From: Octopus vulgaris
Lineage: Eukaryota
Assembly (NCBI GenBank): GCA_951406725.2
Contig: OX597822.1
Location: 97,650,001-97,714,000, forward strand
Direction of reading: 5' to 3'
Length of the DNA: 64,000 nt
A model generated the notes under the pieces. The model did not search any database. It saw only the letters and a program-made list of their open reading frames with translations, and was not told where the DNA came from. The position numbers were made by a program, and so were the translations under genes. Position 1 is the first letter of the stretch. Each line of letters starts with the position of its first letter. This document shows, piece after piece, positions 1,789 to 62,884 of the stretch.

Positions 1789-2102
1789 CTTTAAAGTTGC
1801 ATAATATTCTCGACCATCTTTTAGAACACTCTTATCACCAATCTCTGAAAATTCTTTAAACTGTTCATAGAAAGCCATTACGTTATCTTGAAGTGGAAGA
1901 GTGCCAATACCCAGCATTTTGGAAATGATTCCACTTTCTTGGTCTGTGAAACCATTCCAGTAAATGGTTAGTTCATTGGTATCAATATAATGAAAGTGAC
2001 CAGTGGCACTGCCGATATTTAAAGTTCCATTTTGTGGTGGACTTACATCGATGATGACAGCTTCAGATGTTGCATCTACACTGAGACCAGACAAGTCATA
2101 GG
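1789..2102 (-). CDS. Constant exon 12 (AYDLSGLS...YYATLK); gene continues beyond the window start
   Basis: Acceptor tacttgcAG, donor AAG|GTAAGT; 314 nt; phase 1-0; motifs IDVSPP and WNGFTDQESGI; no stop codon reached. Confidence 0.9.
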
Positions 2103-2155
2103 CTGCAAGTATTTTAAGAAGGAAAACATAAACATGCTTTTTCTTGTAACATAAA

Positions 2156-6065: not shown

Positions 6066-6753
6066 CTATAGAATATGAATAAGAAGCAATTCGAGGATAA
6101 AACGGATTTATAAATACAGTGTTTTTATCAGTGAAGCCATCCCAGTGGATAACAATGGTATCAAGAGTACTAAGAAAACCATTGTAAGAGTTCTCAATCA
6201 TGACATGTCCTTTTAATGGTGGGTCAGCATCAACTAAGAACCCATCTCCACAAGAACCATATGGCTGGAAAATGCCTGAAGGCAAGCTCTTCACTCCTTT
6301 AACACATATGTAATATATCTTATTTGATGGTATGTCTTTGATATCAAATATTATTGTTTTACTGTTTGATTTCAAAGTTTTCAAACAGTTTATTGTACTG
6401 GAACATTGATCTACGGGTGGTTCTGCCACAAACATCAAAAACCAGTCTGAGACAGTGACAGTAGACTCTGTTAGAATGGCACCAACTTGGCCATTCGTAT
6501 GTGAGATGAAGTCAGTTTCATTATGGCTGCAGAAACGATCAATCACTTTTGGATCAGTCACAGAGTAAAGATTTACAGAAGCAGCAAGGTCAGTCCTGAA
6601 TTCACAGATCTCGACGTTGGTATCACTAGTTTTTGAATCTTGATTGTCAATCAAGAGTGGAACTTTCGTTTCTCTGGTCAGACCTGACAGACAATAAGTT
6701 GTCAAGCTTATAGTTTCAGTCCCTCGGAGAGTATGATTGAACATAATCTGGTC
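6066..6753 (-). CDS. Constant exon 10 (DQIMFNH...YSYSI)
   Basis: Acceptor ctttcAG, donor G|GTAAGT; 688 nt; phase 0-1; motifs VDADPP and WDGFTD. Confidence 0.92.
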
Positions 6754-7711: not shown

Positions 7712-8056
7712 GTGTGAGACGACTGCTGTTATCGCTAGGCCTAACCCATCGTAAAGTCAATACCACCATGACCGATATCCAATCTACAGTGGAGAAGGCT
7801 AGCCACTGGATTTGGTTAAAAAGAGACGATGAGCGATGGCTAGAAGGATATTGAGCTTAATTTAATAACCAGCTGATCTAGCAAGTGGGGCCTCATATCA
7901 GTGAGGGGGGGAGGCCGGTGCGCATTGATGCCATTGAGAGGTAGGCCCCCGAAACGGCACACATTCTCTCCTGATGACCCCATACACTTGCTGGCTTCCG
8001 GTATATGGAATTATTGACTGGTAGCACTTGCATGTGCAAGTTGTTTGCAAGACATT
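7711..8056 (+). mobile_element. HERO-like (RLE) non-LTR element 3' end
   Basis: VEKASHWIWLKRDDERW C-terminus; homologous to 55250-55590. Confidence 0.7.
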
Positions 8057-8086
8057 TTATATATATATATATATATATATGAGATA

Positions 8087-10274: not shown

Positions 10275-11665
10275 CTGAAATACTTTTTGGTTTTTAGGGT
10301 TCATAATATAGTGAGCAGGATGGAACAAAGATTGGTTTTGGTAAAAGGCATTCAGTTGAAATACGATAGGATCTGTCACATGACTGCCAGATATGCAATT
10401 AAACCCTTCCCACTGAACTTTGATTTGTGACCCATTTTGAGAAGTTAACAAATGAGCTTGGATCTTGCCTTCAATAGGAATTTTATCAAGGATTAAAGCC
10501 CCAGCAGACAAAACTGGTTTTGTGCAGCCAGCTTCTCCTGCACAAGCCTGTATTGAAAAGCTATATTTATGACCACTTATTAAATTTAAGTTCTTCTGAT
10601 TGGCATGAAACACTTTCTCCAAATGACGAGGATTCATCACAGAACATATTTTCCCACCATTGTTCAGACAAGTTCTGTCTACCAACCTTAGCTGAAAGTG
10701 GGTCACATATTGTGAATAAGGTCCCTTTATTTCCCAGTTAGCTGACATCTGGTGTTTTGATGTTTGGAAATTGACACTGACTGGACATGTTCTCAATATC
10801 GGTTGAGGAATCTTGCTTCTGTTAGTTAGTCCCAATTTGAATGATACTTGAATGGTGGGTCTTGGATTCAATGCAATAAAAGACCGATAGACAGTGTTAT
10901 CGAAAGAAACTGATTGGTGTGGCATTGTTTTGACCATATTGCCACTCACATTGAAATGTCCATCAGCTGCTTCAAAGCCTATCATGTACAAATGTCCAAC
11001 AACAACGTCCTGTAAAAACTTGACCTCAAATATTTTTGTTTTGTTATTGTTGTGGAATGATATTTTAATGGAGTCATTGTGTGAACATCCATTCTGGCCA
11101 TTGAAGATGTTAACCTGTTTCTCAATTTTCTGTTGATCAATGATAATAAATCCATCAGATGCGATAAGCAAGCTCCGTGAATGCATTGTCATATTAACGA
11201 CCGTGAAATATTTGTGGAAACTTTTAATATTAGGACTGGATATGCAATGGCGTCTCTTGTTGGTCACAGGTTGAAATGGTACCACATCTGCAGTGAACCG
11301 ATTTGAACCTATTCCAACAAGCAATTTCATGCTGGGATGAAAATCTTCCAGACTTATGCAAGCTTTGTTGAGGGTACTATGCATATGAATTTGCTTGTCT
11401 GATTCAGAGGCTGGATTTAAGTCAATAACTCTGCCATGGTTAAATGGATGTTTCATTGGGAGATGGAAAGGAGGAGAAGCTGCTGTTGTGAAGAGACCAG
11501 CCATGTTAAATATGTTAAGTTCAAAGAAATATGAGAGAGAAGTGTCTGGCTCTGCAATACCCATCTTATCAATGTTCAGCTTTATGCAATGAAGTCCTCC
11601 AGGACAGATACTATGTCCCTGTGCAGTCCACTTGGGTGTCACAGCTTCTTTAGTTAAACTGTTCT
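10275..11665 (-). CDS. Constant exon 9 (KNSLTKEAVTPKW...QKVFQ)
   Basis: Acceptor ttttcacAG, donor CAG|GTATGT; 1391 nt; phase 1-0; 461-aa ORF. Confidence 0.92.
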
Positions 11666-15027: not shown

Positions 15028-16222
15028 TTATTTGGTAAGTGATGAGGAGATCACTATTTTCCTCTGGGTCATAAAAGGAGTCATTATGCCACAAAACATT
15101 AATGAATTCATCATTCAAGCTTACATTTAAGCCCCCATTATAAAGTGGGGGAGACTGATCGTAAACTAAGGGTCCAATAACTGTTGTTTTACTATGCATA
15201 GCCTTGTTCACTGATCGGATGAAAATGTAGAATCTGTCTCCTGGTTTAATGCCCAATCTGTGCTTCTGGAATCTAGTCTTCTGGTTGGTTGATGTGTATG
15301 CCATGATGTCAGGGTGCTGTTCCAACTGATGGCTGCTGCTTATACCAACAAAGAAGTCAAGAATCTCACTCTCATCTTCTATGTATTTCCAAGACAAGTG
15401 AATATTGTTAGATGGAATACCAATTAGATTAATCTGTGATGAAGAGAAATTGTTTGGACAAATATTTGCTTTGACCATAGTGTCGCTAATTCTTTCTTTC
15501 AGGATTTCTAGAATTGAATTGGAAGCAATAGAACTACAGTTCTGAAAGCAGACTTCAGCTGGGGTTAAAAGCTTCTTGGTTAAATCAAAGTTTATTCTCC
15601 AAACCTTTCCATTATAGCAAGCAACAGTCTCCTGTGTTTTAGCTCCAGTAAGTACAACATCCTTTAGTTTTGGTGGGGTCTCATCATAGACCACTCCATC
15701 TGAGCATACTGCATCAGATGCCTCCAAAGCATAATTGTAAGCGATAACAGTTGAGAAGTACTTTCCAGCTTTTTTAAGTGAAAACTGAGCAGAGGTTTTC
15801 GTAGTATTTATGATGTCATATGAGATATTACAGGAATAACATGGACTGGTCAGTTCTAATTTGGTTAAGCAACGTGGTGCAATGCCAACAACATAATAAT
15901 ATATATCAGATTCGTGATCAACAAATCCATTCCAGTTCACAGTTAAATTTTCACTTCCTGTGAAATCTAAATCAGGAAGTGTATTTTTTCCTTCCTTGAC
16001 AGAACCTGTGCTGGGAGGAGATTCATCCAAAACTATATCCAGATGTTCTTCGTTGAAAAGACCTGCCATATTTTCAACTCGGATAGCAGCAAAATAACGT
16101 CGATTGTGCTGACCCTTATGAGTTCTTGCTGCTATGAGGGCATTGAGTGTGAGCGTAAAGTTTTTCATTTGACACGGCCCATGTTGTGGGCAATAGCAGG
16201 GAGTTTCAGGGGTACATGAAAC
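15028..16222 (-). CDS. Constant exon 8 (VSCTPETPCYCPQHGPCQ...LITYQI), FN3/Ig-like repeats
   Basis: Acceptor ctttctAG, donor A|GTAAGT; 1195 nt; phase 0-1; motifs LDESPP, WNGFVDHES, YDETPP, YDQSPP. Confidence 0.92.
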
Positions 16223-18074: not shown

Positions 18075-18541
18075 ATAATCACCAAGTTTAACTACTGGAA
18101 GTGAACCAGCCCCAATATCATTGGAACCATCTTTTGTTCCCAAAATCCACTGAACTTGTTTTAAACCACTGTGTTGATCAATAGCATCAATTTTAACAAC
18201 CATTGAGGATAAATCAGAAGAATTATGCATATACAATCTTTGGTGCCCATCTTTGGTCAATGAAAATTCTTCAATAGAAGGAGCACTTCGGTCAATATAT
18301 ATCATTATATTCTTGGACAATGTCTGGTTCATAATGTCTCTTGCAGTCACCCATATTCTCAGAGAATCTCCGTCTTGTAAGGTATCTTGGAAACATTGTG
18401 TCTGGTTGTTATTAGGTGAAGTCAAATTTTCTACAGAAATATTCCCATTATTCACTTGGAAACGGTAAGTGAATTGATCTATTCCTTGTATGTTTTCAGT
18501 ACCATTAATGTTGAGTAGACCAGAAATGTGGTCATACTTTT
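18075..18541 (-). CDS. Constant exon 7 (EKYDHISG...KLGDY)
   Basis: Acceptor atcatttcAG, donor TAT|GTAAGA; 467 nt; phase 1-0; motifs IDRSAP and WILGTKDGSNDI. Confidence 0.9.
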
Positions 18542-19351: not shown

Positions 19352-21100
19352 GACTATCTGGTGGTCAATGCGGAAACTGGGATAGACGAGTGGTTGATAA
19401 GAGCTGTACAAGCCCTGTACAAAGATGCTGTCAGTAAGGTGAAGGTTGGCAACGAGTATAGTGAAGAATTCGGAGTAGAAGTAGGAGTTCACCAAGGATC
19501 AGTCCTCAGCCCCCTCTTATTCATTATAGTCCTCCAGGCAATAACAGAGAAATTCAAGACAGGCTGCCACTGGGAGCTCCTCTCTGCTGATGATCTTGCT
19601 CTAATAGTCAACTCACTGCCAGAACTAGAGACAAAGTTTAGGGTGTGGAAGCAAGGTCTAGAATCAAAAGGCCTTAGGGTTAACCTAGCAAAAACTAAAG
19701 TCTTAGCAAGTAAGAAGGCTGGCAAATCACAAACCTCTTCAGGTAGAAATGGCATGGTAGGAACTCCATATGATGTACCCAGTGTAAGCTATGGACACAT
19801 AAAAGGCACAGCAATATCACAGGAAGGTTAACTGGGAAGATAGTTTTTGTGTGGCAGATGCACAGGGGCAATAAACACTGAAGATGTACAGAAAGCAGAC
19901 ACCATCACATGCCAGGGGGAGAAACTAGAAGTAGTTAATAGCTTCCACTATTTAGGTGACCAAGTCTGTAGTGGAGGTGGTTACTCTGAGAGTGTAATGG
20001 CCAGAAGAAGAATAGCCTGGGCAAAGTTCAGGGAGCTCCTACCTCTGCTGGCAACTAAGGGCCTCTTGCACAGGATGAAAGTTAGACTGTATGATGCATG
20101 TGTGCGAACTGTCATGCTACATGGCAGTGAAACATGGGCCATGACTGCTGATGACATGCGTAGGCTTGAAAGAAATGAAGCTGGTATGCTCTGCTGGGTG
20201 TGTAATGTCAGTGTGCATACACAACAGAGTGTAAGCACCCTGAGAGAAAAGTTGGACATAAGAAGCATCAAATGTGGTGTGTAAGAGAGACGATTGCACT
20301 GGTATGGTCATGTATTATGTATGGATGAGGAAAGCTGTGTGAGGAAGTGCCATTCCCTAACTGTGGAAAGAACCTGTGGAAGCAGTAGACCAATGGAAGA
20401 CATAGGATGAGGTGGTGAAGCATGACCCTTGAACATTGGGCCTCACAGAGGCAATGACAGGAGACTGAAATAGGCTGTGATTGAGAAGACCCAGCAACTA
20501 AAGTGAGATCACAGCCATGCATGTCTGGCCTAGTTAAGAGTACTCCTGATGTGTTGGGTGATATGATATGCTTGAGAAGACCTGTTGAGTCAAATAAAAC
20601 CAATATTGTAGCTGTAGCCAGTTGCCCCTGACTGGCTCTCATGCTAGTGGCATGTAAAAAGCACAATCCGAACATGGTTGATGCCAGGTCCACCTGACTA
20701 GCTCCTGTGCCAACGGCATGTAAAAAGCACCATCCAAATGTGGCCAATGCATGGTACCTCCTGACTGGCTCCTGTGCCAGTTGCTCATAAAAAGCACTAT
20801 CTGAACGTAGCCAATGCCAGTACTCCCTGACTGGTTCCCCTGCCAGTGACATGTAAAAAGCACTATCCAAACATGATTGCAGCCAGGCCCGGCTGACTGG
20901 CTCCTGTGCTGGTGGCACCTAAAAAGCACCCACTACACTCACGGAGTGGTTGGTGTTAGGAAGGGCATCCAGCTGTAGAAACTCTGCCAGATCAGATTGA
21001 AGCCTGATGCAGCTGCTGGCTCCCCAGTCCTCAGTCAAACTGTCCAACCCATGCCAGCATGGAAAACGGACGTTAAGCAATGATGATGATGATGATGATA
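19352..21100 (+). mobile_element. 5'-truncated, frameshifted RTE-clade LINE
   Basis: GVHQGSVLSPLLF, LSADDL, AWAKFRELLPLL, LHGSETW; tandem-repeat 3' UTR and (GAT)n tail. Confidence 0.92.
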
Positions 21101-21714: not shown

Positions 21715-22388
21715 CTGGTATAGTATTATCTTCCTTTATTGGTTTCAAATACGTTTCAAGAAAAGTGTTCATAAAAAGATTGTACCATGTGATACAGGCG
21801 TTTTCTTCATCTGAATACCAAGGGATGTCACTTCGACCAGTTTTTGAAATAACTTTCGGTAGAGGAATATTTCTGGCTTCAATCAAGGAACTGTTGTCAT
21901 AGAGAAAGAATTTGCGAGCATACTGGGCATTGTGAGCAAAATCTTTGATGGTGAGATATACCGCATAAACTCCTGGTGCTGCAGACAGACTTAACTCTAA
22001 AGTTGTTTCATTAAAACTCTCATACTTATAAAGTGTTTTCGTTTGATCTACTTGCAGTTTATCTCCTGCTACTGTCATAGGATGGACTACAACTTCATAT
22101 GATTCAACGCCGTTGTTTCCAATTCCATTTCTGTAGACATTACCATCAAACCAACCATCGAACATAATTGTAACATTTGGTGATCGGGAAAGAGTTGGAA
22201 TCACTTTCAAAGGCTCTGAACCACACTTTAATGTCTCGCTACAGTGTTGAGGAGGTTTTCTATCGTATTGGAAGCATTTCGTTTCTGTCGATGCAGTTTG
22301 TCGGTAATACTGTGTGGGTGATGGACTTGAATTGATGGGTTTAACAATCAAGTAGCCTCCACCATAGGAGGTAAACTCTGTACACAAT
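21715..22388 (-). CDS. Constant exon 6 (RLCTEFTSYGGG...DNTIP)
   Basis: Acceptor ttctctttcAG, donor G|GTACTT; 674 nt; phase 2-1; 226-aa ORF containing YDRKPP. Confidence 0.9.
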
Positions 22389-34323: not shown

Positions 34324-36820
34324 TCATCATCATCATCATCATCATCGTTTAACGTCCGCTTTCCGCGCTAGCACGGGTTGGACGGTTCGACCGGGTCTGG
34401 GAAGCCAGGGGCCGCTCCAGGCTCCAGTCTGAATCTGGCAGAGTTTCTACGGCTGGATGCCCTTCCTAACGCCAACCACTCCGTGAGTGGATTGGGTGCT
34501 TTTTACGTGCCACCTGCACAGGGGCCGGAGGATCCGGCATCGTCACGATCAGTTCGAGCATTTTAACGTGTCAGCGGCACGGGGGCAACGAGGTCCGGGG
34601 TACTTTGGGGATCGGGGTACTTTGGGGATCCAGGGTACTTTGGGGATCCGGGGTACTTAGAATGGGTAGGGGGTATGTGGAATTGCTGCAGAAAGCAGCC
34701 CGGGTCTTTGTAGTCACAGCATATCTCCAGAGATCTCGGTCCTTCGCCATTGCCTCAGTGAGGCCCAATGCTCTGAGGTCATGCTTGACCACCTCATCCC
34801 ATGTCTTCCTGGGTCTACCTCTCCCCCTGATACCTTCAACTGTTTGGGAGTGGCACTTCTTCACACATCTCTCTTCATCCATCCGCAGCACATGACCATA
34901 CCATCGCAAGCGTCGCTCTTGCACACCACATCTGATGCTTCTTATATCCAGCATTTCTCTCAGGATACTTACACTCTGTTTTGCGTGCACACTGACACTA
35001 CACATCCAGCGGATCATGCTAGCTTCATTTCTTTCAAGTCTACGCATGTCTTCTGCAGTCACAGCTCATGTTTCATTACCGTGAAGCATGGCTGTTCGCA
35101 CATGCATCATACAATCTACCTTTTGCTCTGAGGGAGAGACCTTTTGTTGCCAGTAGGGGTAGGAGCTTTCTGAACTTTGCCCAGGCTATTCGTATTCTAG
35201 TGGTGATACTCTCTGTGCATCCACCTCCGCTACTAACTTGGTCACCCAGGTAGCGGAAACTATCAACTACTTCTAGTTTCTCTCCCTGGAGTGTGATGGA
35301 ATCTGTTTTCTGAGTGTCTGTTGTGTCTATTGTCCCTGTGCATCTGCCGCACATGAAAGCTATCTTATCTGTTAATTTCCCTTTAATGTTGCTGCACCTC
35401 TTATGTGTCCATAACTTACATTGGGTGCATCTTATGGAGTTTCTACCTGTACCTTTCCTACAGGTTGAGCAGGGCCACCTACCCGAGGGGATGTGTGCTG
35501 AGTACCTCTTGCTGCTTACTAATACTTTGGTCTTTGCTACATTTATTCTAAGGCCCTTTGATTCCAACCCTTGCTTCCACACCCGAAATTTCTCTTCTAG
35601 TTCCGGTAGTGATTCTGCTATGAGAGCTAGGTCATCGGCATAGAGGAGCTCCCAGGGGCATCCTGTTTTGAATTCCTCTGTTATTGCCTGAAGGACTATG
35701 ATGAATAAAAGGGGACTGAGGGCTGAGCCCTGGTGCACACCTACTTCTACCCGGAATTCTTCACTATATTCGTTGCCAATCCTAACCTTGCTGACAGCCT
35801 CTCTGTATAGAGCCTGTACAGCCCTTATTAGCCATTCTTCAATCTCCAGTTTCCGCATCGACCACCAGATAAGGGAACGGGGAACCCTGTCAAAGGCTTT
35901 CTCCAAGTCTACAAAAGCTATGTAGAGGGGTTTATCTTTAGCTAGGTACTTCTCCTGCAGTTGTCGGACCAGGAATATAGCATCAGTGGTGCTTCTACCT
36001 GGTACAAAACCGAACTGCATTTCATCTAAACAAATTCTCTCCCTAATGAGATTGGTTATGACCTTCTCTGAGACCTTCATCACCTGGTCCAACAGTTTGA
36101 TACCTCTGTAGTTATTTCTATCTAGAGCATCACCCTTACCCTTGTAGCAGTTGACTATGGTGCTGCTGCACCAGTCATTGGGTATGACTCCATTGTGAAC
36201 TACCTGGTTTACAATGCGGGTGACTATGGCATAGCCCACATAGCCAGCTGTTTTAAGCATCTCAGCAGTGATTCCTGATAGGCCAGGGGCTTTGCCTGGT
36301 TTCATATCCTTAATTGCCTTATCTACAAGGGAGCTGTCTATTCGGGTAGCTGGTCCCTCTACTGGGTCAACATTTGGCAGGCTCTCCTCCTCCCATTCAT
36401 TCTCCTCATTCAGCAGTCTTTCATAATGGCTTCTCCAAGCCTCTTTCTTTTCACTAGTAGTAAAAGCAAGTGCCCCATCATCCATGCGGACACATTTCTC
36501 TCCTATAACATCGCTATTTTCTCTGACACACTGTCTGGCAATCCGAAATACTTCAGCTCTTTGATCCTCGCGACGCTGGACATTGGCAAACTTCTTCTTT
36601 TCTGCTACATCTTTGGCAATGTATACCTGCCGTCCAGCCTCCCTTTTGGCTATCTGGTACAGTTCCCTGCTGCCCCCATCCTTCCAGGCTTTCCAGGCCC
36701 GTCTCTTTTCACAGATGGCTTTATCTACTGCACTATTCCACCACCACGTAATTCTAGGTCTGGAAGGGACTTTGCACCATCCACAGACTTGGTCTGTGGC
36801 ACTCAACAAGCTGTCCCGTA
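34324..36820 (-). mobile_element. Young 5'-truncated RTE-clade LINE (RT nearly intact, one frameshift near 35090)
   Basis: 614-aa ORF with QFGFVPGRSTTDAIF, FVDLEKAFDRV, QGSALSP, YADD; C-terminal GRGRPRKTW; 3' UTR ending in (GAT)n. Confidence 0.95.
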
Positions 36821-36823
36821 GGA

Positions 36824-36855
<32 letters not shown>

Positions 36856-37875
36856 CTCTCTCTTTTGGAGAGGCACTGAGCAGCTATACGCACACATACA
36901 CACACTGCAGTAACTTCCACCTACCGAATTCAATCACAAAGCTCCGGTCAGCTCGGGGCTATAGCAGAAGACACCTACCCAAAGTGCCACGCAGTGGGAC
37001 TGAACCCGAAACCATATGGCTAGGAAGCAAGCTCCCTAACCACACAGCCATGCCCACACTTCTTCTCTGGATACCCCTCTTTTTCTCTGGACACACCTCT
37101 TCTTCTCTGGACACTAAACTCTGCTTGCGAAGACCAGTTGAGGCAAGCGAAATCGAAGTCAAAATCAAACTCAGTGACTGGCATCCATTGCTAGTGGAGC
37201 ATTAAGAGTACCATACGAGTGAGATCATTGCCAAAACAACAAGCTGGCATGTTTAAGCACACCATTCAAGTGTGATCGTTACTGCGTCGCCTTACTAGCA
37301 CTTGTGCTGGTGGCATGTGAAACATTCGAGTGAGGTTGTCGCCAGTGCCACTGGACTGGCTCCTGTGCAGGTGGCATGTAAAAAGCACCATTTGGGCATG
37401 GCCGTTGCCAGTACCACCAAACTGGCCCTTGTGCTGGTGGAACGTAAAAGCACCCACTACACTCTCGGAATGGTTGGCATTAGGAAGGGCATCCAGCTGT
37501 AGAAACTCTGCCAGATCAGATTAGAGTCTGGTTTGCCAGACCTCAGTCAAATCGTCCAACCCATGCTAGCATGGAAAGCGGACGTTAAATGATGATGATG
37601 ATGATGATGATGATAATGATGTGTTCCACATTTATGTTTGGTCATTAATTCTATGCTGACTGGGTGATTGCAAAGGTTGTTTATTGGCTTATGAACTATT
37701 TGTGGTATGATATCAGATTATTTGTTTGAAAATATGATATTACTGTTTGGTACCCCTAATATGTATGATAGTTGTGTAGAAGTATATAGAAATACATTAT
37801 AGAGTATTTATAGAGTTCTACAATAAATGTATGATAGGTGTATAGAAATATATAGAAATATTATAGAGTACTTAC

Positions 37876-48224: not shown

Positions 48225-49768
48225 CTACCCAACGACAAAGACCTTGTTACACGGTGTTATTGAAATCAGTAAGAAAATGCTCAGAGTATTATAATGTAAT
48301 GAGTACTCACGATTTGGACAACAATATTGTGATGAGTGGCAACCACTAGGATAACATGCCTTTGATGTTCTGGTGTCTGAGATACCACATACTGAAGCAC
48401 ATTGTTGTAAGTTATTTCCATAATCTGTGCAAGAGGCACCTACTTGTCTTCTAGAAATATCTCCACATCTATGTGTGCAGGCAGACCATTGAGTAATTCG
48501 TTTAGAAGAACATTTGTTTGGAGGTTTGCTACGGCCTTTACCCAGCCACCATGTTTGCACCGGTTGGAGACAGACTAAAACAATTATCGTTAGCCATCGA
48601 GTGCTATGCATTGTTTATGAGATAAATAATTCTTTCTTCACACAATTATTTTCTTCAATTTTTGTGCACAATTCAATCCTTTAATAGTTACTGCACCAAA
48701 GTTTGGTATTGAAAGTCATTCCTAGTTGACTTACCCTCTGTAATGGACACTGAAAATCATTTTGCAAAGTGCTTTGAAACATGCTGAGGAACGCAGCAAA
48801 AATCTCATTGGTCAGAGATTAACATTAACTTGAGCCACTAAAAGCTCTTTTAATCAAGGGGGATCAATTCAGTTTTGAGAATATGAATAATAGTTATCTG
48901 AAAAACATTTCACGTTTTTGTTTTCTTTTTGATTGGAATATAGGTTATCAATGTTGTCAACGCCCCAGCGATTAGTTGCTTCATATTACTTGTTGTTGCT
49001 GTGGTGGTGGCTGGGTAGAGGGTAGAAGAGGAAGATGATGATGATTGTATGGGGTGGTCAGACAGAGGGTGATGTAGGAGTGGATAAGGTGTTGGTAGAA
49101 GGTGATCAAGAAGTATATGGGGTAGAGGGTGGCTGTAAAGCAATCTAGTTGGTGGGTAGTGGTTGGTAATAAAGGGCAAAAAGAGGCTCATATGGAGGGT
49201 GAGTAGAAAGCAATACAATAGTGGGTGGGCAAAGTTTAATGTAGTGGGTGGACCGAAGGGTAGCAGGGAGGAAAAAGGTGTTGTAGTGTGTGCGTAGAAT
49301 TAGGGTGACTGCAATTTTGTTAGTGGGTGGAAGGTAGGGAAGTGAATAAATTCCAAGGTAATATCATGTATCCTCAGTTCCAGTGGATATCTGTGGGTTA
49401 ACCTTGCAACAGATTGGGGTACCATCTGTACTAGTGGCAGTTTGTGGGTTAACCTAGCAAGAAATTGGAGTACCCTCAGTATCAGTGGCAGCTGATAGGT
49501 TTACCCTCAGCAGACTACTTTACCCTCACTCCTAGTGGCTGTTGGTAGCTAAAGCCTACAACAGACTGGCATCATCAGTACTAGTGGTAGCTTGGTGAAA
49601 TAGTCTTGCAACGGACTGGCTGTGTGGTTAAGGAGCTCATTTTCCCAACCATGCAGTCATGGTTTCAGTACCACTGCATGGTTCCTTGGGCAACGGTTTT
49701 CTCTTATAGCTCTGGGCTGATCAAATCCTTGTGAATGGATCTGGTACATGGAATCTGAAAGAAGCCCA

Positions 49769-54899: not shown

Positions 54900-55084
54900 A
54901 TGAAATATATAGTAGACAACAATTGTTGAAGGTATCACACAGTGGGAATGAACCCGAAGCCATGTGATTGGGAAGCAAGCTTTTTAGACACACAGCCACA
55001 GTTGTGTGTGTTTAAATAATAATAAACTTATTACTGAAATTAGGAAGAGAATATTAATAGTATTATAAAGTAGTGAGTACTTAT

Positions 55085-55126
55085 GGTTTGGACAATGATA
55101 TTGCGATGAGTGACATCCATCAGGAT
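55085..55126 (-). pseudogene. Pseudo-exon psiV4: 3' remnant of a variable first exon
   Basis: Translates HPDGCHSSQYHCPN versus YPSGCHSSQYCCPN. The donor is mutated GTGAGT->ATAAGT. The downstream intron resembles that of V5. The 5' part is replaced by a HERO LINE fragment. Confidence 0.8.
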
Positions 55127-55590
55127 GCCACTCAGGATTGAAAGATCGACTGCTATAAAAACCTCGTTGAGGAATCTGAAAACGCAGGCTGGAAAACAGT
55201 GCATTTTCCAATCGAAGTTGGATGTAGAGGATTTGTTGGAAACATTGTGAGGCGACTGTTGTTGTTGTTGTTGCTAGGCCTAGCTCATCATAGAACAAAT
55301 ACCACTATGAGTGATGTCCAGACTACAGTGGAGAAGGTGAGCCACTAGATTTGGTTAAAAAAGAGACTATGAGCAAGAAAGAATATTGAGCGAAACCTAA
55401 TAACCAGTTGGTCTAGTAAGCAGGGCTTCATTTCAATGAGGGTGGGTGGTTTGCAAAATGATGCCACCGAGAGGAAGGCCCCAAAATGGCACACATTCTC
55501 TCCTGATGACATCATAAACTTGCCAGCATCTGGTGTGCGGAACTTTCAACTGGTAGCCCTTGTACTTGCAAGTTGTTTGCAATATATATA
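55127..55590 (+). mobile_element. HERO-like non-LTR 3' fragment; the 3' part is re-copied at 57123-57430 and 58967-59275
   Basis: ENAGWKTVHFPIEVGCRGFVG...VEKVSH*IWLK motif. Confidence 0.8.
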
Positions 55591-55651
55591 TATTGCATCT
55601 TCAAGTAGTCTGCAAACAATATTAAAAAATTATAAAACAGTAAGTACTCAC

Positions 55652-55916
55652 GATTTGGACAACAATATTGAAACATGTGGCATCCACTAGGATAACATGG
55701 TTTTGATGTTCTTATGTGTGATAATCCACAGAGTGGAGCACATTTCTCTGAGTTGTCTTCATTTTGTACGCATGCGGTACTTACTTCTCTTTTAGAGATA
55801 TCTCCACATCTATGTCTGCAGGCAGACCATGGAGACATTCCTATGATCATGCACGATGTCTGCACTGGTTGGAAACAGTATAAAGCAATTATCATTAACC
55901 ATAGAATGTTATGCAT
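55652..55916 (-). CDS. Variable first exon V3 (signal peptide + TSP1-like domain, 88 aa + 1 nt)
   Basis: ATG at 55916; open frame to CCPN; donor C|GTGAGT, phase 1 (265 nt). Confidence 0.8.
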
Positions 55917-56494
55917 CCTTTATGAAATAAAGAATTTCTTTTGACCAAATTCGTCTGCACAATTCAATTCTTTAAGTAATAACTTTGAAATCAAAAGTCA
56001 TTCCTTGTTGACTTACCCTCTGCAATGGACAGAATGAAGAGTTTTTCACAAACTGCTTAGAAATATGACAAGGAATGCAGTGAAAATTTTGTTGGTCAGG
56101 AAGTAACAGTTGCTTTAGCCACTAAAGCTCTTTTAATCATAGTGGACCAGATTAATAGATATTTAAAATATATTTTGTTGTGTTTAGATTCAAGAAATTT
56201 ATGTTATCAATGTTATCAACATTTCCTTGATTTATATTACGTGTTATTGCTGTGGTTTTGGTTGAGTAGAGGGTAGAAATGGGTGAAGATGATGACGACG
56301 ACAACGACGATAACGATGATGATGATGACAATAATAACGACGATGATGATGTGAGAGTGTGGGTGGATGGATGGAGGGTGATGCATGGTTGGGTAAGAGG
56401 GTAAGGGGTAAGGTATAGACAGACGGCGCTGTAGAAGTGAATGGCGATCACAATCTAGCTATTGGGTGGAAGGTAATGCAGTGAATGCATTTCA

Positions 56495-56880
56495 GGGTGA
56501 TGTGGTGTACCCCCAGTACAAAGTGGCTGTTTGTTGGTTAGCCCATCAAGAAACTGGATTATCCTCAGTTCCAGTGGCAGCTAGTGGGTTAAACTATTAG
56601 CAGATCGGTATACCTTCAGTACCAGTGGAAGCTAGTGGGTTAACCCATCAATAGGCTAGAGTACCCTCAACATCATTAGCAGCTAGTGGGTTAACCTATC
56701 AACAAACTGAGGTATTATCAGTACATATGGCAGCTAGTGGATTTTACCTATCAATAGACTGTGTTACCCTTAGTATCAGTGACAAATGACGATTTCTCCC
56801 TCAATAGACTAGTTTACCCTATTACTAGTGGCTTAACCCTGCAACAGACTAGTACATCATCAGTACCAGTGGTACCTTGT
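56495..56880. repeat. Degenerate ~41-bp minisatellite upstream of V3 (also ~58355-58740, ~60250-60630, ~49360-49620)
   Basis: Repeated unit approximately gtaccctcagtaccagtggcagctagtgggttaacccatcaacagactg. Confidence 0.8.
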
Positions 56881-57013
56881 AAATGACATGGCTGTGTACT
56901 TGAGAAGCATATTTTCCCAATCATGTGACACTTTGGGCAAGTGTCTTCTATTATAACCCTAAGCTGACCAAAATTCTGTGAGTGGATTTGGTAGATGGAA
57001 ACTAAAAACCCAT

Positions 57014-57084
<71 letters not shown>

Positions 57085-57491
57085 TTTATTTAAAGCAGCA
57101 GAAAATTCAACAAATCCTGTTACTCATCATAGAACAAATACCACTATGAGTGATGTCCAGACTACAGTGGAGAAGGTGAGCCACAAGATTTGGTTAAAAA
57201 AGAGACTATGAGCAAGAAAGAATATTGAGCGAAACCTAATAACCGGTTGGTCTAGTAAGCAGAGCTTCATTTCAATGAGGGTGGGTGGTTTGCAAAATGA
57301 TGCCACTGAGAGGAAGGCCCCAAAATGGCATATATTCTCTCCTGATGACATCATAAACTTGCCAGCATCTGGTATGCGGAGCTTTCAACTTGTAGCCCTT
57401 GTACTTGCAAGTTGTTTGCAATATATATATATATTGCATCTTCAAGTAGTCTGCAAACAATATAAAAAAATATATAACAGTAAGTACTCAC

Positions 57492-57756
57492 GATTTGGAC
57501 AACAATATTGTGATGAATGGCATCCACTAGGATAACATGGTTTTGATGTTCTGGTGTCTGGGATTCTAAAGACTGGAACACCTGTCTGTGAGTTGTATCT
57601 ATATACTGCGCATTTGGCAATTACGTGTCTTTTAGAGATATCTCCACATCTATGTCTGCAGGCAGACCATGGAGACATTCCTGTGATCATGCACGATGTC
57701 TGCACTGGTTGGAAACAGTATAAAGCAATTATCATTAACCGTAGAATGTTATGCAT
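57492..57756 (-). CDS. Variable first exon V2 (signal peptide + TSP1-like domain, 88 aa + 1 nt)
   Basis: ATG at 57756; open frame to CCPN; donor C|GTGAGT, phase 1 (265 nt); paralogous to V1/V3/V5. Confidence 0.8.
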
Positions 57757-58879
57757 CCTTTATGAAATAAAGAATTTCTTTTGACCAAATTCGTCTGCAC
57801 AATTTAATTCTTTAAGTAATTACTTTGAAATCAAAAGTCATTCCTTGTTGACTTACTCTCTGCAATGGACAGAATGAAAAGTTTTTCGCAAACTGCTTAG
57901 AAATATGACAAGGAATGCAGTGAAAATTTTGTTGGTCAGGAAGTAACAGTTGCTTGAGCCACTAAAGCTCTTTTAATCCTAGATGACCAGTATAGTTTGG
58001 ACAATATCCTGATTAATAGTTCTTTAAAAGATATTTTGTTGTGTTTAGATTCAAGAAATTTATGTTATCAATGTTATCGACATTTCCTTGATTTATATTA
58101 CGTGTTATTGCTGTGGTTTTGGTTGAGTAGAGGGTAGAAATGGGTGAAGATGATGACGACGACAACGACGATAATGATGATGATGATGACAATAATAACG
58201 ACGATGATGATGTGAGAGTGTGGGTGGATGGATAGAGGGTGATGCATGGTTGGGTAAGGGGGTAAGGGGTAAGGTATAGACAGACGGCGCTGTAGAAGTG
58301 AATAGCGTTCACAATCTAGCTATTGGGTGGAAGGTAATGCAGTGAATGCATTTCAGGGTGATGTGGTGTACCCCCAGTACAAAGTGGCTGTTTGTTGGTT
58401 AGCCCATCAAGAAACTGAAATATCCTCAGTTCCAGTGGCAGCTAGTGGGTTAAACTATTAGCAGATTGGTGTACCTTCAGTACCAGTGGAAACTAGTGGG
58501 TTAACCCATCAATAGGCTAGAGTACCCTCAACATCATTAGCAGCTAGTGGGTTAACCTATCAACAAACTGAGGTATTATCAGTACATATGGCAGCTAGTG
58601 GATTTACCTATCAATAGACTGTGTTACCCTTAGTATCAGTGACAAATGAGGATTTCTCCTTCAATAGACTAGTTTACCCTATTTCTAGTGGCTTAACCCT
58701 GCAACAGACTGGTACATCATCAGTACCAGTGGTACCTTGTAAATGACATGGCTGTGTACTTGAGAAGCATATTTTCCCAATCATGTGACACTTTGGGCAA
58801 GTGTCTTCTATTATAACCGTAAGCTGACCAAAATTCTGTGAGTGAATTTGGTAGATGGAAACTAAAAACCCATCATGTA

Positions 58880-58928
<49 letters not shown>

Positions 58929-59334
58929 TTTATTTAAAGCAGCAGAAGATTCAACAAATCCTGTTATTCATCATAGAACAAATACCACTATGAGTGATGT
59001 CCAGACTACAGTGGAGAAGGTGAGCCACTAGATTTGGTTAAAAAAGAGACTATGAGCAAGAAAGAATATTGAGTGAAACCTAATAACCGGTTGGTCTAGT
59101 AAGCAGAGCTTCATTTCAATGAGGGTGGGTGGTTTGCACAATGATGCCACCGAGAGGAAGGCCCCAAAATGGCACACATTCTCTCCTGATGACATCATAA
59201 ACTTGCCAGCATCTGGTATGCGGAACTTTCAACTGGTAGCCTTTGTACTTGCAAGTTGTTTGCAATATATATATATTGCATCTTCAAGTAGTCTGCAAAC
59301 AATATAAAAAAAATATATAACAGTAAGTACTCAC

Positions 59335-59632
59335 GATTTGGACAACAATATTGTGATGAGTGACATCCACTAGGATAACATGATTTTGATGTTCTGGTGT
59401 CTGTGATTCCACAGACTGGAGCACATTTCTGTAAGTTGTCTTTATGATGTGTGCATATGGCAGCTACTTGTCTTTTAGAGATATCTCCACATCTATGTCT
59501 GCAGGCAGACCATGGAGTTATGTTTTTGGCTAGGCATTTGTTTGGAGATTTTTTTTTATTCCAAAGCCACCATGTCTGCACTGGTTGGAAACAGTATAAA
59601 GCAATTATCATTAACCATAGAATGTTATGCAT
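59335..59632 (-). CDS. Variable first exon V1 (signal peptide + TSP1-like Cys-rich domain, 99 aa + 1 nt)
   Basis: ATG at 59632. Hydrophobic N-terminus MHNILWLMIIALYCFQPVQT, then C-x7-WSACRHRCG...CYPSGCHSSQYCCPN. Donor AAT C|GTGAGT at 59335/59334, phase 1 (298 nt). Confidence 0.85.
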
Positions 59633-60800
59633 CGTTTATGAAATAAAGAATTTCTTTTGACCAAATTCGTCTGCACAATTTAATTCTTTAAGTAATTACT
59701 TTGAAATCAAAAGTCATTCCTTGTTGACTTAACTGCTGCAATGGACAGAATGAAGAGTTTTTCACAAACTGCTTAGAAATATGACAAGGAATGCAGTGAA
59801 AATTTTGTTGGTCAGGAATTAACAGTTGCTTGAGCCACTAAAGCTCTTTTAATCATAGTGGACCAATATAGTTTGGACAATATCCAGATTAATAGATATT
59901 TAAAAGATATTTTGTTGTGTTTAGATTCAAGAAATTTATGTTATCAATGTTATCGACATTTCTTTGATTTATATTACTTGTTGTTATTGCTGTGGTGTTG
60001 GTTGAGTAGAGGGTAGAAATGGGTGAAGATGATGACAATGACAAAGACGATAATGATGATGATGATGATGACAATAATGACGACGATCATGACGATGATG
60101 ATGTGTGAGTGTGGGTGGATGGATGGAGGGTGATGCATGGGTGGGTAAGGGGGTAAGGGGTAAGGTATAGACAGACGGCGCTGTAGAAGTGAATGGCGAT
60201 CACAATCTAGCTATTGGGTGGAAGGTAATGCAGTGAATACATTTCAGGGTGATGTGGTGTACCCCAAGTACAAAGTGGCTGTTTGTTGGTTAGCCCATCA
60301 AGAAACTGGATTATCCTCAGTTCCAGTGGCAGCTAGTGGGTTAAACTATTAGCAGATTGGTATACCTTCAGTACCAGTGGAAACTAGTGGGTTAACCCAT
60401 CAATAGGCTAGAGTACCCTCAACACCATTAGCAGCTAGTGGGTTAACCTATCAACAAACTGAAGTATTATCAGTACATATGGCAGCTAGTGGATTTACCT
60501 ATCAATAGACTGTGTTACCCTTAGTATCAGTGACAAATGATGATTTCTCCTTCAATAGACTAGTTTACCCTATTACTAGTGGCTTAACCCTGCAACAGAC
60601 TGGTACATCATCAGTACCAGTGATACCTTGTAAATGACATGGCTGTGTACTTGAGAAGCATATTTTCCCAATCATGTGACACTTTGGGCAAGTGTCTTCT
60701 ATTATAACCGTAAGCTGACCAAAATTCTGTGAGTGAATTTGGTAGATGGAAACTAAAAACCCATTATGTATATATGTATATATATATATATATATATATA

Positions 60801-61110
60801 CTTTATTTAAAGCAGCAGAAAATTCAACAAAACCTGTTACTCTGAGTTTCACGTTGCCATTTGTCGGACAGTTTTTGCTAGAATAGTTTTGCTATTCTAG
60901 TAAAAACTGTCCGATGAACGGCAACTTGAAACTCAGAGTAACAGGTTTTGTTATTCTAGCAAAAAACTGTCCGACGAATGGCAACGTGAAACTCAGAGTA
61001 ACAGGTTTTGTTGAATTTTGTGCTGCTTTAAATAAAGCATATTACTCTACCACTGGTATTTGAGAATATCTTTTTTCCACCTTGTTTCACATCTATGTGT
61101 TTACTCCAGT
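60801..61110. repeat. Palindromic element with a partly duplicated right arm; related pieces at 3414-3532 and 14568-14650
   Basis: ctttatttaaagcagcagaaaattcaacaaaacctgttactctgagtttc... is mirrored by ...gaaactcagagtaacaggttttgttgaattttgtgctgctttaaataaag. Confidence 0.85.
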
Positions 61111-61137
61111 ATATATATATATATATATATATATATA

Positions 61138-62884
61138 CAAGCAGAGATACCCGGCTTTGCCCGTATGGCATGCAATTGAAGAATTAGTCTTTTCTTTTGT
61201 ATTTTCTCAGAACTGGAATACATATGATTTGAATTTCATTAAAATTGCAGATTAATAGTTTTAATGAAGGTTCTTTCTCTCTTTACACACCCTAACAAAA
61301 ATTCTAATCATAACATATTTATCCCATACTACTCACCTTTATGCCCAGATTCCAAAATCCAAATCTTATGAAACCTATTCAAAGGTTTTTCCTCCTGAAA
61401 AATGGAGCACATGGAGCTTTAAAACGTATGAGTTAAGGCTCATTTTGGGGCGGAGGTCTTAAAGTCAACCAGAGAAGTTGAATTGTTGGGAATCTTTTTT
61501 AACTTAGGTCTTATATCTATTGTTCAAATTTCTTTGAAATCAGAAATATATGAATGTTCACTGGTTTTGTAAAAGAGAGTAAAGCTACAGGAAACCCAAA
61601 GACAAATGATCACAATAAGCAGTCAGCTATTCTATCCTAGTAATTACCACCCCTCAATGTAGGATTCCTCACCATACAGGAGACAGGCACAGCTGTAAGA
61701 TGCATTACGTATCTACAGCAATTGGAAAAGTATGACCCAACTCAAATAAACTTTAACAACTGTGTGACGTGAGGGCTAAGGAGAAATGAAAATGTCACCT
61801 CTGGAGTTTGTCAATGATCACTATACTCATAAGTAACTGGGCAGAATAAATTTGCAATCTATAAATTTCTTTGAATGGCCAGTCACTTATCTGGGAAGGG
61901 CTTGAAATCAATGTTACCATCTGGGGACTATCTCTGACCCAATGATAATAAAAAGACTCAAAGGAGGTCTGCAACTCAAAAAACACTTTGCAACTGAATC
62001 AGTGGAGGCAGAGATGCCTCTCCTTTACTTGACAATTTATGCACCACATTACAGAAATCACAATCTAAGTATATCTCAAAGCAAAGTCTTTCACTGTCGT
62101 ACCATTGAATTACAAATAACGCTCATCTTGTATGCTTGGGTGACTCTACAGCTTCCAAGAGTACAATTGTATTTGTCTTGGCTTAGGAAAAAAATGACTA
62201 AATTGTAGGGGTTAAGCCCCCATTAAGCAGTCTTACTAATGCCTAAGAAGTTGAAATTTTAGAAATATTTCTTCATTTGTGTCTAATATCTATGGTTAAA
62301 ATTTCATCAACAGCAAAAATATATGAATTTTCATGGGGGTTATGGCCTCATTTATGCCCCCTCACTTTCAAACATATACTGCATTACATCTGTCCTTATG
62401 CACAGAATATAATTTTAAAATTTCATAAAGATCCATTCAGTACTTTTGACCTAGTTTTGAATCATAAAAGAAATGACTAAAATTTGGGAGTTAAGGCCCC
62501 CATTGGGGAGTCTTAGAATCTTCATGAGGAGCGGAAACTTTGGGAGTACTTCTTGGGAATACTTCTTGATGTGTGTCAATTACCTATGGTTGAAATTTCA
62601 TCGACATTGGAAATTTATGAATTTTCATGGGGGTTCTGCCCCCTTTAAGCCACCTCAAATTCAAACCAAACATACTGCATTATACCCGCATTGAATCTAA
62701 GTTCCAAATATCATAAGGATCCATTCAGTAATTTTGGTCCATGAAATTGTATGAAACATACAGCATCACCCTTCTCCCTAGGCTTGGATTTTGTGTTCCA
62801 AATTTCATTAGGATTGGTCAGTAGTCTTTGAATCTATAAGTAACACACGAACACACACAAAGACATTGACTTTTATATAATAGA
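61138..62884 (-). mobile_element. Degenerate non-autonomous Helitron
   Basis: Same terminal architecture as 2156-2558 (TCTATTATATAAAAGTC start; GGGCAAAGCCGGG and CTTG end). Confidence 0.6.

Follow-up and report, generated by a model that had tools for sequence, protein, structure and literature searches.

Which process could exchange most residues of one short stretch of an exon while leaving the DNA around it nearly unchanged? This question is raised by a locus of Octopus vulgaris, which we analyzed within a window of 64,000 nucleotides (C9:97,650,001-97,714,000), the whole stretch of DNA under study. The window holds four copies of a candidate variable first coding exon, all on the minus strand, as are the tandem units, the degenerate copy and the shared exons described below. 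Two are long forms, V1 (59335..59632; 99 codons plus 1 nt) and V4 (48311..48611; 100 codons plus 1 nt), and two are short forms of 88 codons plus 1 nt, V2 (57492..57756) and V3 (55652..55916). V1 runs from its ATG through a predicted signal peptide and a putative TSP1-like, Cys-rich domain to a phase-1 splice donor; an own ATG, a hydrophobic core (KD11 2.3-2.6, the signal peptide being judged by hydrophobicity) and an identical donor context and phase 1 were found in all four copies, with 8-10 mature cysteines within the exon (10 in V1, 8 in V2 and 10 in V3). V3, V2 and V1 lie in three tandem units of about 1.85 kb each (55260..60800) with an overall identity of 92-94%. V4, in turn, shares 68% identity with them over exon and flanks, marking it as the older copy, and lies closest to the exons that all copies may share. 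Protein and DNA searches of the 2.8-Gb genome (227 contigs) returned these four matches, all inside the window, and no further copy in the 40 kb upstream or 60 kb downstream of it. Directly behind a repeat fragment, we also noticed a degenerate element (55050..55126) that takes in the final portion of a V exon together with the start of the intron but lacks the GT donor, which is either a relic V copy or an insertion by-product.

The divergence is confined to a loop of 25 residues, located at 59396-59470 in V1, 57553-57627 in V2 and 55713-55787 in V3. Recounting reproduced the figures of the initial annotation exactly: 26 of 80 nucleotides differ between 55711-55790 and 57551-57630, and 20 of the 25 residues are changed, as compared to 6 differences in 200 nt upstream (55921-56120 versus 57761-57960). 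Its roughly tenfold coding excess came out as about nine-fold when the 75-nt loop, with 26 differences (34.7%), was set against the complete non-coding alignment of the V2 and V3 units (56 differences in 1,479 columns, 3.8%; Fisher p=1.5e-16). Among 42 sliding windows of 75 columns, all 36 outside 55888-55613 showed 0-6 differences. The loop is free of indels, stops and frameshifts, and its character indeed shifts from acidic in V3 (four D/E, one K/R, no aromatic residue) to basic and aromatic in V2 (one D/E, three K/R, three aromatic residues), with two of three loop cysteines lost in V2. The C-terminal Cys block, described as nearly invariant, deserves this label with one reservation, as V3 reads HMFQY instead of HSSQY and 6 of 61 nucleotides differ.

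The same pattern extends to two copies beyond V2 and V3. V1 and V4 differ at 9 of 25 loop residues despite surroundings of only 68% identity, and the V4 loop differs at just 4 of 25 residues from that of a homologue recovered from Logan (P0002), showing that it is conserved. Private loop changes numbered 4 in V1, 10 in V2 and 12 in V3, which argues for a burst of change on V2 and V3. As a second difference between the copies, V2 and V3 have lost 11 codons in frame directly behind the signal peptide (57696-57757 region versus 59540-59575 in V1), and with them a WWL/basic leader kept in V1 and V4.

Codon-level comparisons indicated that these loop changes are almost all replacements. Replacement and silent differences (Nd/Sd) amounted to 24.5/1.5 for V2-V3, 17.5/0.5 for V1-V2 and 18.5/1.5 for V1-V3, with a loop dN of 0.39-0.62 and dS of 0.03-0.10 among V1-V3, as opposed to a dN of 0.02-0.04 outside the loop. 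By codon position, the V2-V3 differences are distributed 14/9/3. The silent-site count is low, with P=0.035 for at most 2 of 17 under equal silent and replacement rates. Complementarily, we fitted an own GY94-type site model to 79 gap-free codons, leaving out the indel region and choosing no window. M2a was preferred over M1a (LRT 12.2, p=0.002) with an omega of 6.6 on 16% of sites; 10 sites reached a posterior above 0.5, seven of them in the loop, and all four sites above 0.9 were loop sites. In a branch test, for which the loop was picked after the fact, omega greatly exceeded 1 on the V1-V3 branches (p=4e-4), although its point value of 32 is poorly bounded; the loop gave 0.35 on the V4 branch, and the exon outside the loop gave 0.62. 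These tests rest on four sequences with few silent sites and on a codon model of single-base changes; within this frame, positive selection on the V2/V3 loop is supported. The accelerated, selection-driven change proposed in the initial annotation and its implication that the copies are functional are supported by the same statistics.

Could the contrast between loop and flanks have arisen without positive selection, with gene conversion or unequal crossing-over evening out the flanks of old, divergent alleles or paralogues? Tandem units of 1.85 kb readily undergo conversion, and the tree signal does shift along the unit, with V2 and V3 being closest in the 5' part of the exon and V1 and V2 in the intron; in contigs from another sequencing run (X4), moreover, a V3-like loop is joined to a V2-like 3' flank. 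Old loops should, however, carry silent changes, and the high loop dS that the initial annotation had named as pointing to such exons was not observed: the values of 0.03-0.10 among V1-V3 are compatible with the 3.8% non-coding divergence (P=0.13), as opposed to 0.32-0.57 in comparisons with the old copy V4. This low silent divergence therefore speaks against old exons with converted flanks, as do the 9 of 25 residues separating V1 and V4 at 68% surrounding identity, compared to 20 of 25 for V2 and V3, and no donor sequence was found elsewhere in the assembly. Although conversion may well have evened out the flanks, it offers no explanation for a loop in which nearly every change is a replacement, and we regard this account of the locus as improbable. 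We give still less credence to the idea that V2 and V3 are decaying or unexpressed and owe their cluster of changes to a local mutation hot spot or to multi-base mutations. Two conserved cysteines are gone from V2, several codons differ at two or three positions, and a possible relic copy lies in the window; yet a hot spot should strike third positions equally, 26 changes accumulated without a single stop or indel, and the two cysteines were lost together, keeping their number even, as may be expected if they pair with each other. A short-form contig in a run that we guess to be RNA (X1) adds a weak argument in the same direction.

An assembly artefact, that is haplotypes stitched together in tandem or a faulty loop consensus, is the least credible of these explanations. 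The non-coding divergence of 3-4% is near plausible allelic levels; however, three distinct young units and V4 reside in one contig, and errors would not spare silent sites. Other samples also show some of the copies. We aligned four of the 21 listed sequencing runs, to V3 only and as single low-depth contigs. A contig of X4, a run labelled as another organism, spans the V3 loop and differs at 3 of 135 nt, which speaks against a consensus error in V3. Low consensus quality, the other objection anticipated by the initial annotation, is thereby cleared for V3; the V2 loop letters are without an independent sighting in another sample. In all, X4 shows two different loops, one of them 3 and the other 19 differences away from V3, enclosed by flank contigs that they share, and V4 flanks are present as well. 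X5 holds a short-form unit with a loop of the same length that is too diverged to align, again alongside V4 flanks, and X2, a second run guessed to be RNA, yielded a long-form V1-like contig with 12 differences from V3 in the loop region. The X1 and X2 contigs (164 and 207 nt, depth 3-5) end before the V donor, and none of the reads or contigs links a V exon to C2, the next exon downstream; no sample is recorded as RNA.

What, then, do these exons encode? The sequence beyond the V donors behaves as an intron, because the read-through tails share neither one frame nor one length (104-145 aa in total, with a stop after 16-46 more codons) and because V4 and its homologue P0002 differ at 13 of 28 tail residues, compared to 14 of 100 exon residues. 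The next exon, C2 (39507..39647; 141 nt, phase 1 to phase 1), fits the V donors in phase and continues their cysteine pattern with six cysteines. It is followed by an EGF-like exon, C3 (37876..38001; 126 nt, phase 1 to phase 1), with Pfam EGF-type matches below cut-off, and by shared exons at 21715..22388, 18080..18541 (ends approximate), 15028..16222, 10275..11665 and 6066..6753, the last one located in the window being 1789..2130 (start approximate). The exons at 15028..16222 and 10275..11665 contain FN3-like stretches, repeated in the former, where fn3 reached E=0.004, below cut-off. The gene runs on for about 33 kb to the left of the window, through L005-L007, where the last exon located (L008:6897-6626) closes with a stop codon; the gene spans about 93 kb in all. 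Located exons total about 3,220 codons, a lower bound, as the exon list is incomplete. Both C2 and the 21715..22388 exon are single copy, with one genome match each, and a single distant paralogue was found for the exon on L007. None of the nine shared exons tested contains a 19-residue window above KD 1.4, as a membrane-like stretch would, and no polyA signal lies within 1 kb of the final stop. The donor context AATC/GTGAGTAC of the V exon ends recurs at the end of C2 (39507-39515), which may reflect an old duplication of exon ends or chance. LINE-like reverse-transcriptase frames occupy gene introns at 34574-36920 and 19355-20456; a LINE-like open frame of 614 residues lies at 36920-35079, and a second copy is 79% identical.

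We consider it likely, though by no means certain, that V1-V4 are alternative first exons of this one gene for a giant secreted protein, that V1-V3 are recent and that their loop is under selection. Each V exon, with its own start codon and signal peptide, would probably be driven by its own promoter and spliced to the same shared exons, so that the secreted protein, at least 3,200 residues long, could exist in as many as four versions, alike except for an N-terminal domain of roughly 70-80 residues. TATAAAT occurs 320-341 nt upstream of the ATG in V1-V3 and in degenerate form in V4, the upstream DNA having been duplicated with each exon. V4 would represent the old, conserved version, and V1-V3 would stem from a recent tandem triplication of the 1.85-kb unit, after which selection would have rapidly altered the 25-residue stretch in V2 and V3 with the cysteine frame and splice donor held fixed. 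The long FN3-like body could then act as scaffold or spacer for a small set of interchangeable binding tips. As for possible upstream exons, a GGTAAGT ahead of the ATG was rejected as a 5'-UTR donor: it is not conserved in V1, an acceptor common to all copies is missing, and the X1 contig is unspliced 48 nt upstream of the ATG.

The main competitor to alternative first exons is that V1-V3 are stand-alone, single-exon genes for small secreted, Cys-rich peptides of toxin- or antimicrobial-like type, derived from the giant gene's first exon, with V4 alone still serving that gene and selection acting on the free peptides. Each exon has its own ATG and signal peptide, its mature cysteines are even in number (10, 8 and 10), read-through meets a stop after 16-46 codons, and AATAAA follows about 400 nt into the intron in V1 and V2. 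A conserved frame around a variable core is, moreover, the pattern of the mussel MgCRP-I peptides in the parts consulted of their description (PMC4558851). Against this, the GT donor context is intact in V1-V3, the tails are mutually frameshifted by microsatellite slips, and AATAAA appears only at about 950 nt in V3 and beside an AT microsatellite in V1 and V2. No closing stop codon for a conserved mature peptide was found within the exon, and the read-through tails are unconserved. The comparison with toxins, one of three drawn in the initial annotation, is therefore not supported as the main reading, given the conserved donor, its phase fitting the next exon of the giant gene and the intron-like sequence behind it; V2 and V3 probably do not stand alone as toxin-like genes, and the scenario for V1-V3 as a whole appears unlikely to us.

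Returning to alternative first exons, we asked which fold the variable domain might adopt. The spacing W-S-x-C-x3-C-G, R-x-(R/V) and C-x4-C is present in all four V copies, and the nearest ESM Atlas clusters are TSP1 (0.82-0.89, to be read as a lead only). Profile searches retrieved only the V4-like Logan cluster (P0002, P0004 and P0005) and, as the sole distant match, P0003, a six-repeat TSP1 protein (E=3e-6). Scored against the P0003 six-repeat profile, V3 reached 19.1 bits, V1 14.5, V2 9.9, P0002 7.6 and V4 6.4, with 7.0 for the best of 1,000 shuffles, a comparison that is partly circular. A stacked Trp/Arg ladder was not seen, with one core Trp in all V copies versus two or three on strand A of TSP1 repeats, and Pfam TSP1 gave at best 13 bits against a cut-off of 41 (E=0.05-0.12, for V3 only, one of seven members matching). 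Two AlphaFold models built on 7-row alignments were helical with mean pLDDT of 48 and 55; Foldseek with these low-confidence models returned no match at E<=0.001, a PDB sequence search returned one chance match (E=0.6), and neither of two candidates was a full-length V-exon homologue. Since the Trp ladder is missing and scores stay below Pfam cut-offs, we call the domain TSP1-like, a tentative description that claims no family membership. A metagenome match (L036) proved to be an off-frame chance match in a bacterial-looking contig, and an ShK-like reading of the loop (C-x3-C-G) was dropped, as the closing cysteine is missing and Pfam gave no match.

The closest resemblance within the TSP1 class is to the F-spondin-like group 2, which, in the sections consulted of its description, likewise has a Cys before W-S-x-C-x3-C-G, followed by R-x-V and a closing C-x4-C (PMC2173040). 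The V domain departs from TSP1 in having one core Trp in place of the ladder, extra loop cysteines, scores below Pfam cut-offs and a fold not recovered by AlphaFold. Besides the loop, a second variable patch may lie directly after the signal peptide (55830..55856, codons 21-29 of V3), where V1 differs from V2 and V3 at seven of nine residues. Differences in other samples hint at the same patch: all five in the short-form 5' part from X1 change amino acids, four of them in codons 23-27, and seven coding differences in a flank contig of X4 produce six residue changes, five in codons 21-27. If the domain is TSP1-like, the loop would reach from the end of strand B across the B-C loop into the beginning of strand C, and the second patch would sit at the start of strand A. 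According to the same portion of the group-2 account, a disulfide ties the start of strand A to the top of the domain, beside the B-C loop (PMC2173040), so that under this fold both variable patches would meet at one, outer end of the domain, which would be the free N-terminal end of the protein.

Our best guess for the selective partner is something foreign and variable, such as a microbial or parasite surface met by a sensor or decoy, which we hold at somewhat below even chances; a gamete, egg-coat or self-recognition partner seems unlikely, and another kind of partner is conceivable, with a probability nearer one in three than one in two. Because the copies diverge within one genome beside a conserved V4, the pattern by itself is more easily reconciled with a repertoire widened against a changeable partner from outside than with one pair of sperm and egg proteins. 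The more ambitious proposal, a molluscan diversified-recognition locus in which promoters select from an array of first exons that gains and loses members, with strong allelic and copy-number variation between animals, and in which interchangeable hypervariable tips on a giant secreted scaffold serve an immune or self/non-self role, is speculative and in our view doubtful. If true, it would amount to a protocadherin-style diversity generator on a secreted cephalopod protein and offer the first functional handle on a widespread protein family. Independently of this proposal, the locus narrows an intense selection signal in an uncharacterised protein of more than 3,200 residues down to about 25 of them and supplies the conserved V4 as a built-in control, which renders the function of the family directly testable: four small domains can be expressed and compared for binding.

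Related designs are known. In UGT1 and the clustered protocadherins, as far as the consulted passages of one account go, tandem variable first exons of near-equal length share a frame, carry their own signal sequence and join common downstream exons, copies undergo birth and death, and positively selected sites fall in hypervariable patches of the variable exon (PMC1885805). The octopus locus resembles them in these features of layout and selection, and three of five features of a variable-first-exon locus were found here, namely the same frame and phase, shared phase-compatible exons and an own start with signal peptide. It differs in showing no sequence relation, in comprising only four exons, in that promoters and splicing are inferred from genomic sequence, and in that the variable part makes up 2-3% of a giant secreted protein instead of most of an ectodomain or an enzyme half. 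Chelicerate sDscam, according to the portions consulted of a report on tandem 5' cassettes, segmental duplications including the promoter and species-specific expansion (PMC4835542), is comparable as an invertebrate case of 5' duplications with a variable N-terminal domain on a constant body; its cassettes, however, comprise two to four exons encoding Ig domains of a cell-surface receptor, as opposed to one Cys-rich, TSP1-like exon in a protein in which no membrane anchor was found. Mytilus MgCRP-I combines, in the parts consulted, a conserved signal region and cysteine frame with positively selected residues after duplication (PMC4558851), a pattern of MgCRP-I or conotoxin type that the V exons share; those are free short peptides of multi-gene families, whereas the V exons end in a donor fitting a giant shared body. 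The passages found of an octopus protocadherin paper mention no variable/constant exons in cephalopods (PMC6339937), and our searches of the open-access literature, supplements aside, returned no account of such a locus for a cephalopod or for this protein family. With the design already established in vertebrates (Pcdh, UGT1) and chelicerates (sDscam), the novelty lies in its candidate occurrence in an unnamed secreted protein family.

The shared body itself is akin to unnamed giant FN3/Ig-like repeat proteins of molluscs and hemichordates, whose repeats are joined by D-x-[ST]-P-P linkers. The 15028..16222 exon is homologous to an 'uncharacterized protein' of Ptychodera flava (P0001; E=1e-41, 32% identity over 59% of the exon), which looks N-terminally incomplete, and look-alike clusters of the 21715..22388 exon in the ESM Atlas (0.93-0.96, recognition value below threshold) are unnamed and mostly molluscan. 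A distant paralogue-like giant FN3-repeat gene was noticed at C26:38,554,000-38,631,000 (L027, L028, L030, L033 and L034). It has an open exon of 929 residues, cadherin-like and EGF-like stretches, a further stretch that we take to be PAN-like, and a C-terminal hydrophobic segment; ending in a predicted membrane segment, it is unlike the V-locus protein. No V-like N-terminus was evident among its open frames of at least 110 residues, and it seems to belong to a different subfamily.

Finally, we noted several repeats around the V units. A degenerate 51-bp tandem repeat is located about 600-900 nt upstream of every V exon (49312-49600, 56500-56870, 58365-58730 and 60280-60620) and, being present upstream of V4 too, predates the oldest duplication. 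A repeat fragment sits right behind the V1-V3 donors (55130-55593, 57123-57434 and 58968-59276) and occurs again at 7724-8068; the breakpoints of the tandem units fall in this donor-side fragment and the adjacent AT microsatellite. Just upstream of V1, at 60800-61140, short inverted repeats and 60-bp tandem repeats related to the unit-boundary sequence possibly mark the end of a small DNA transposon.
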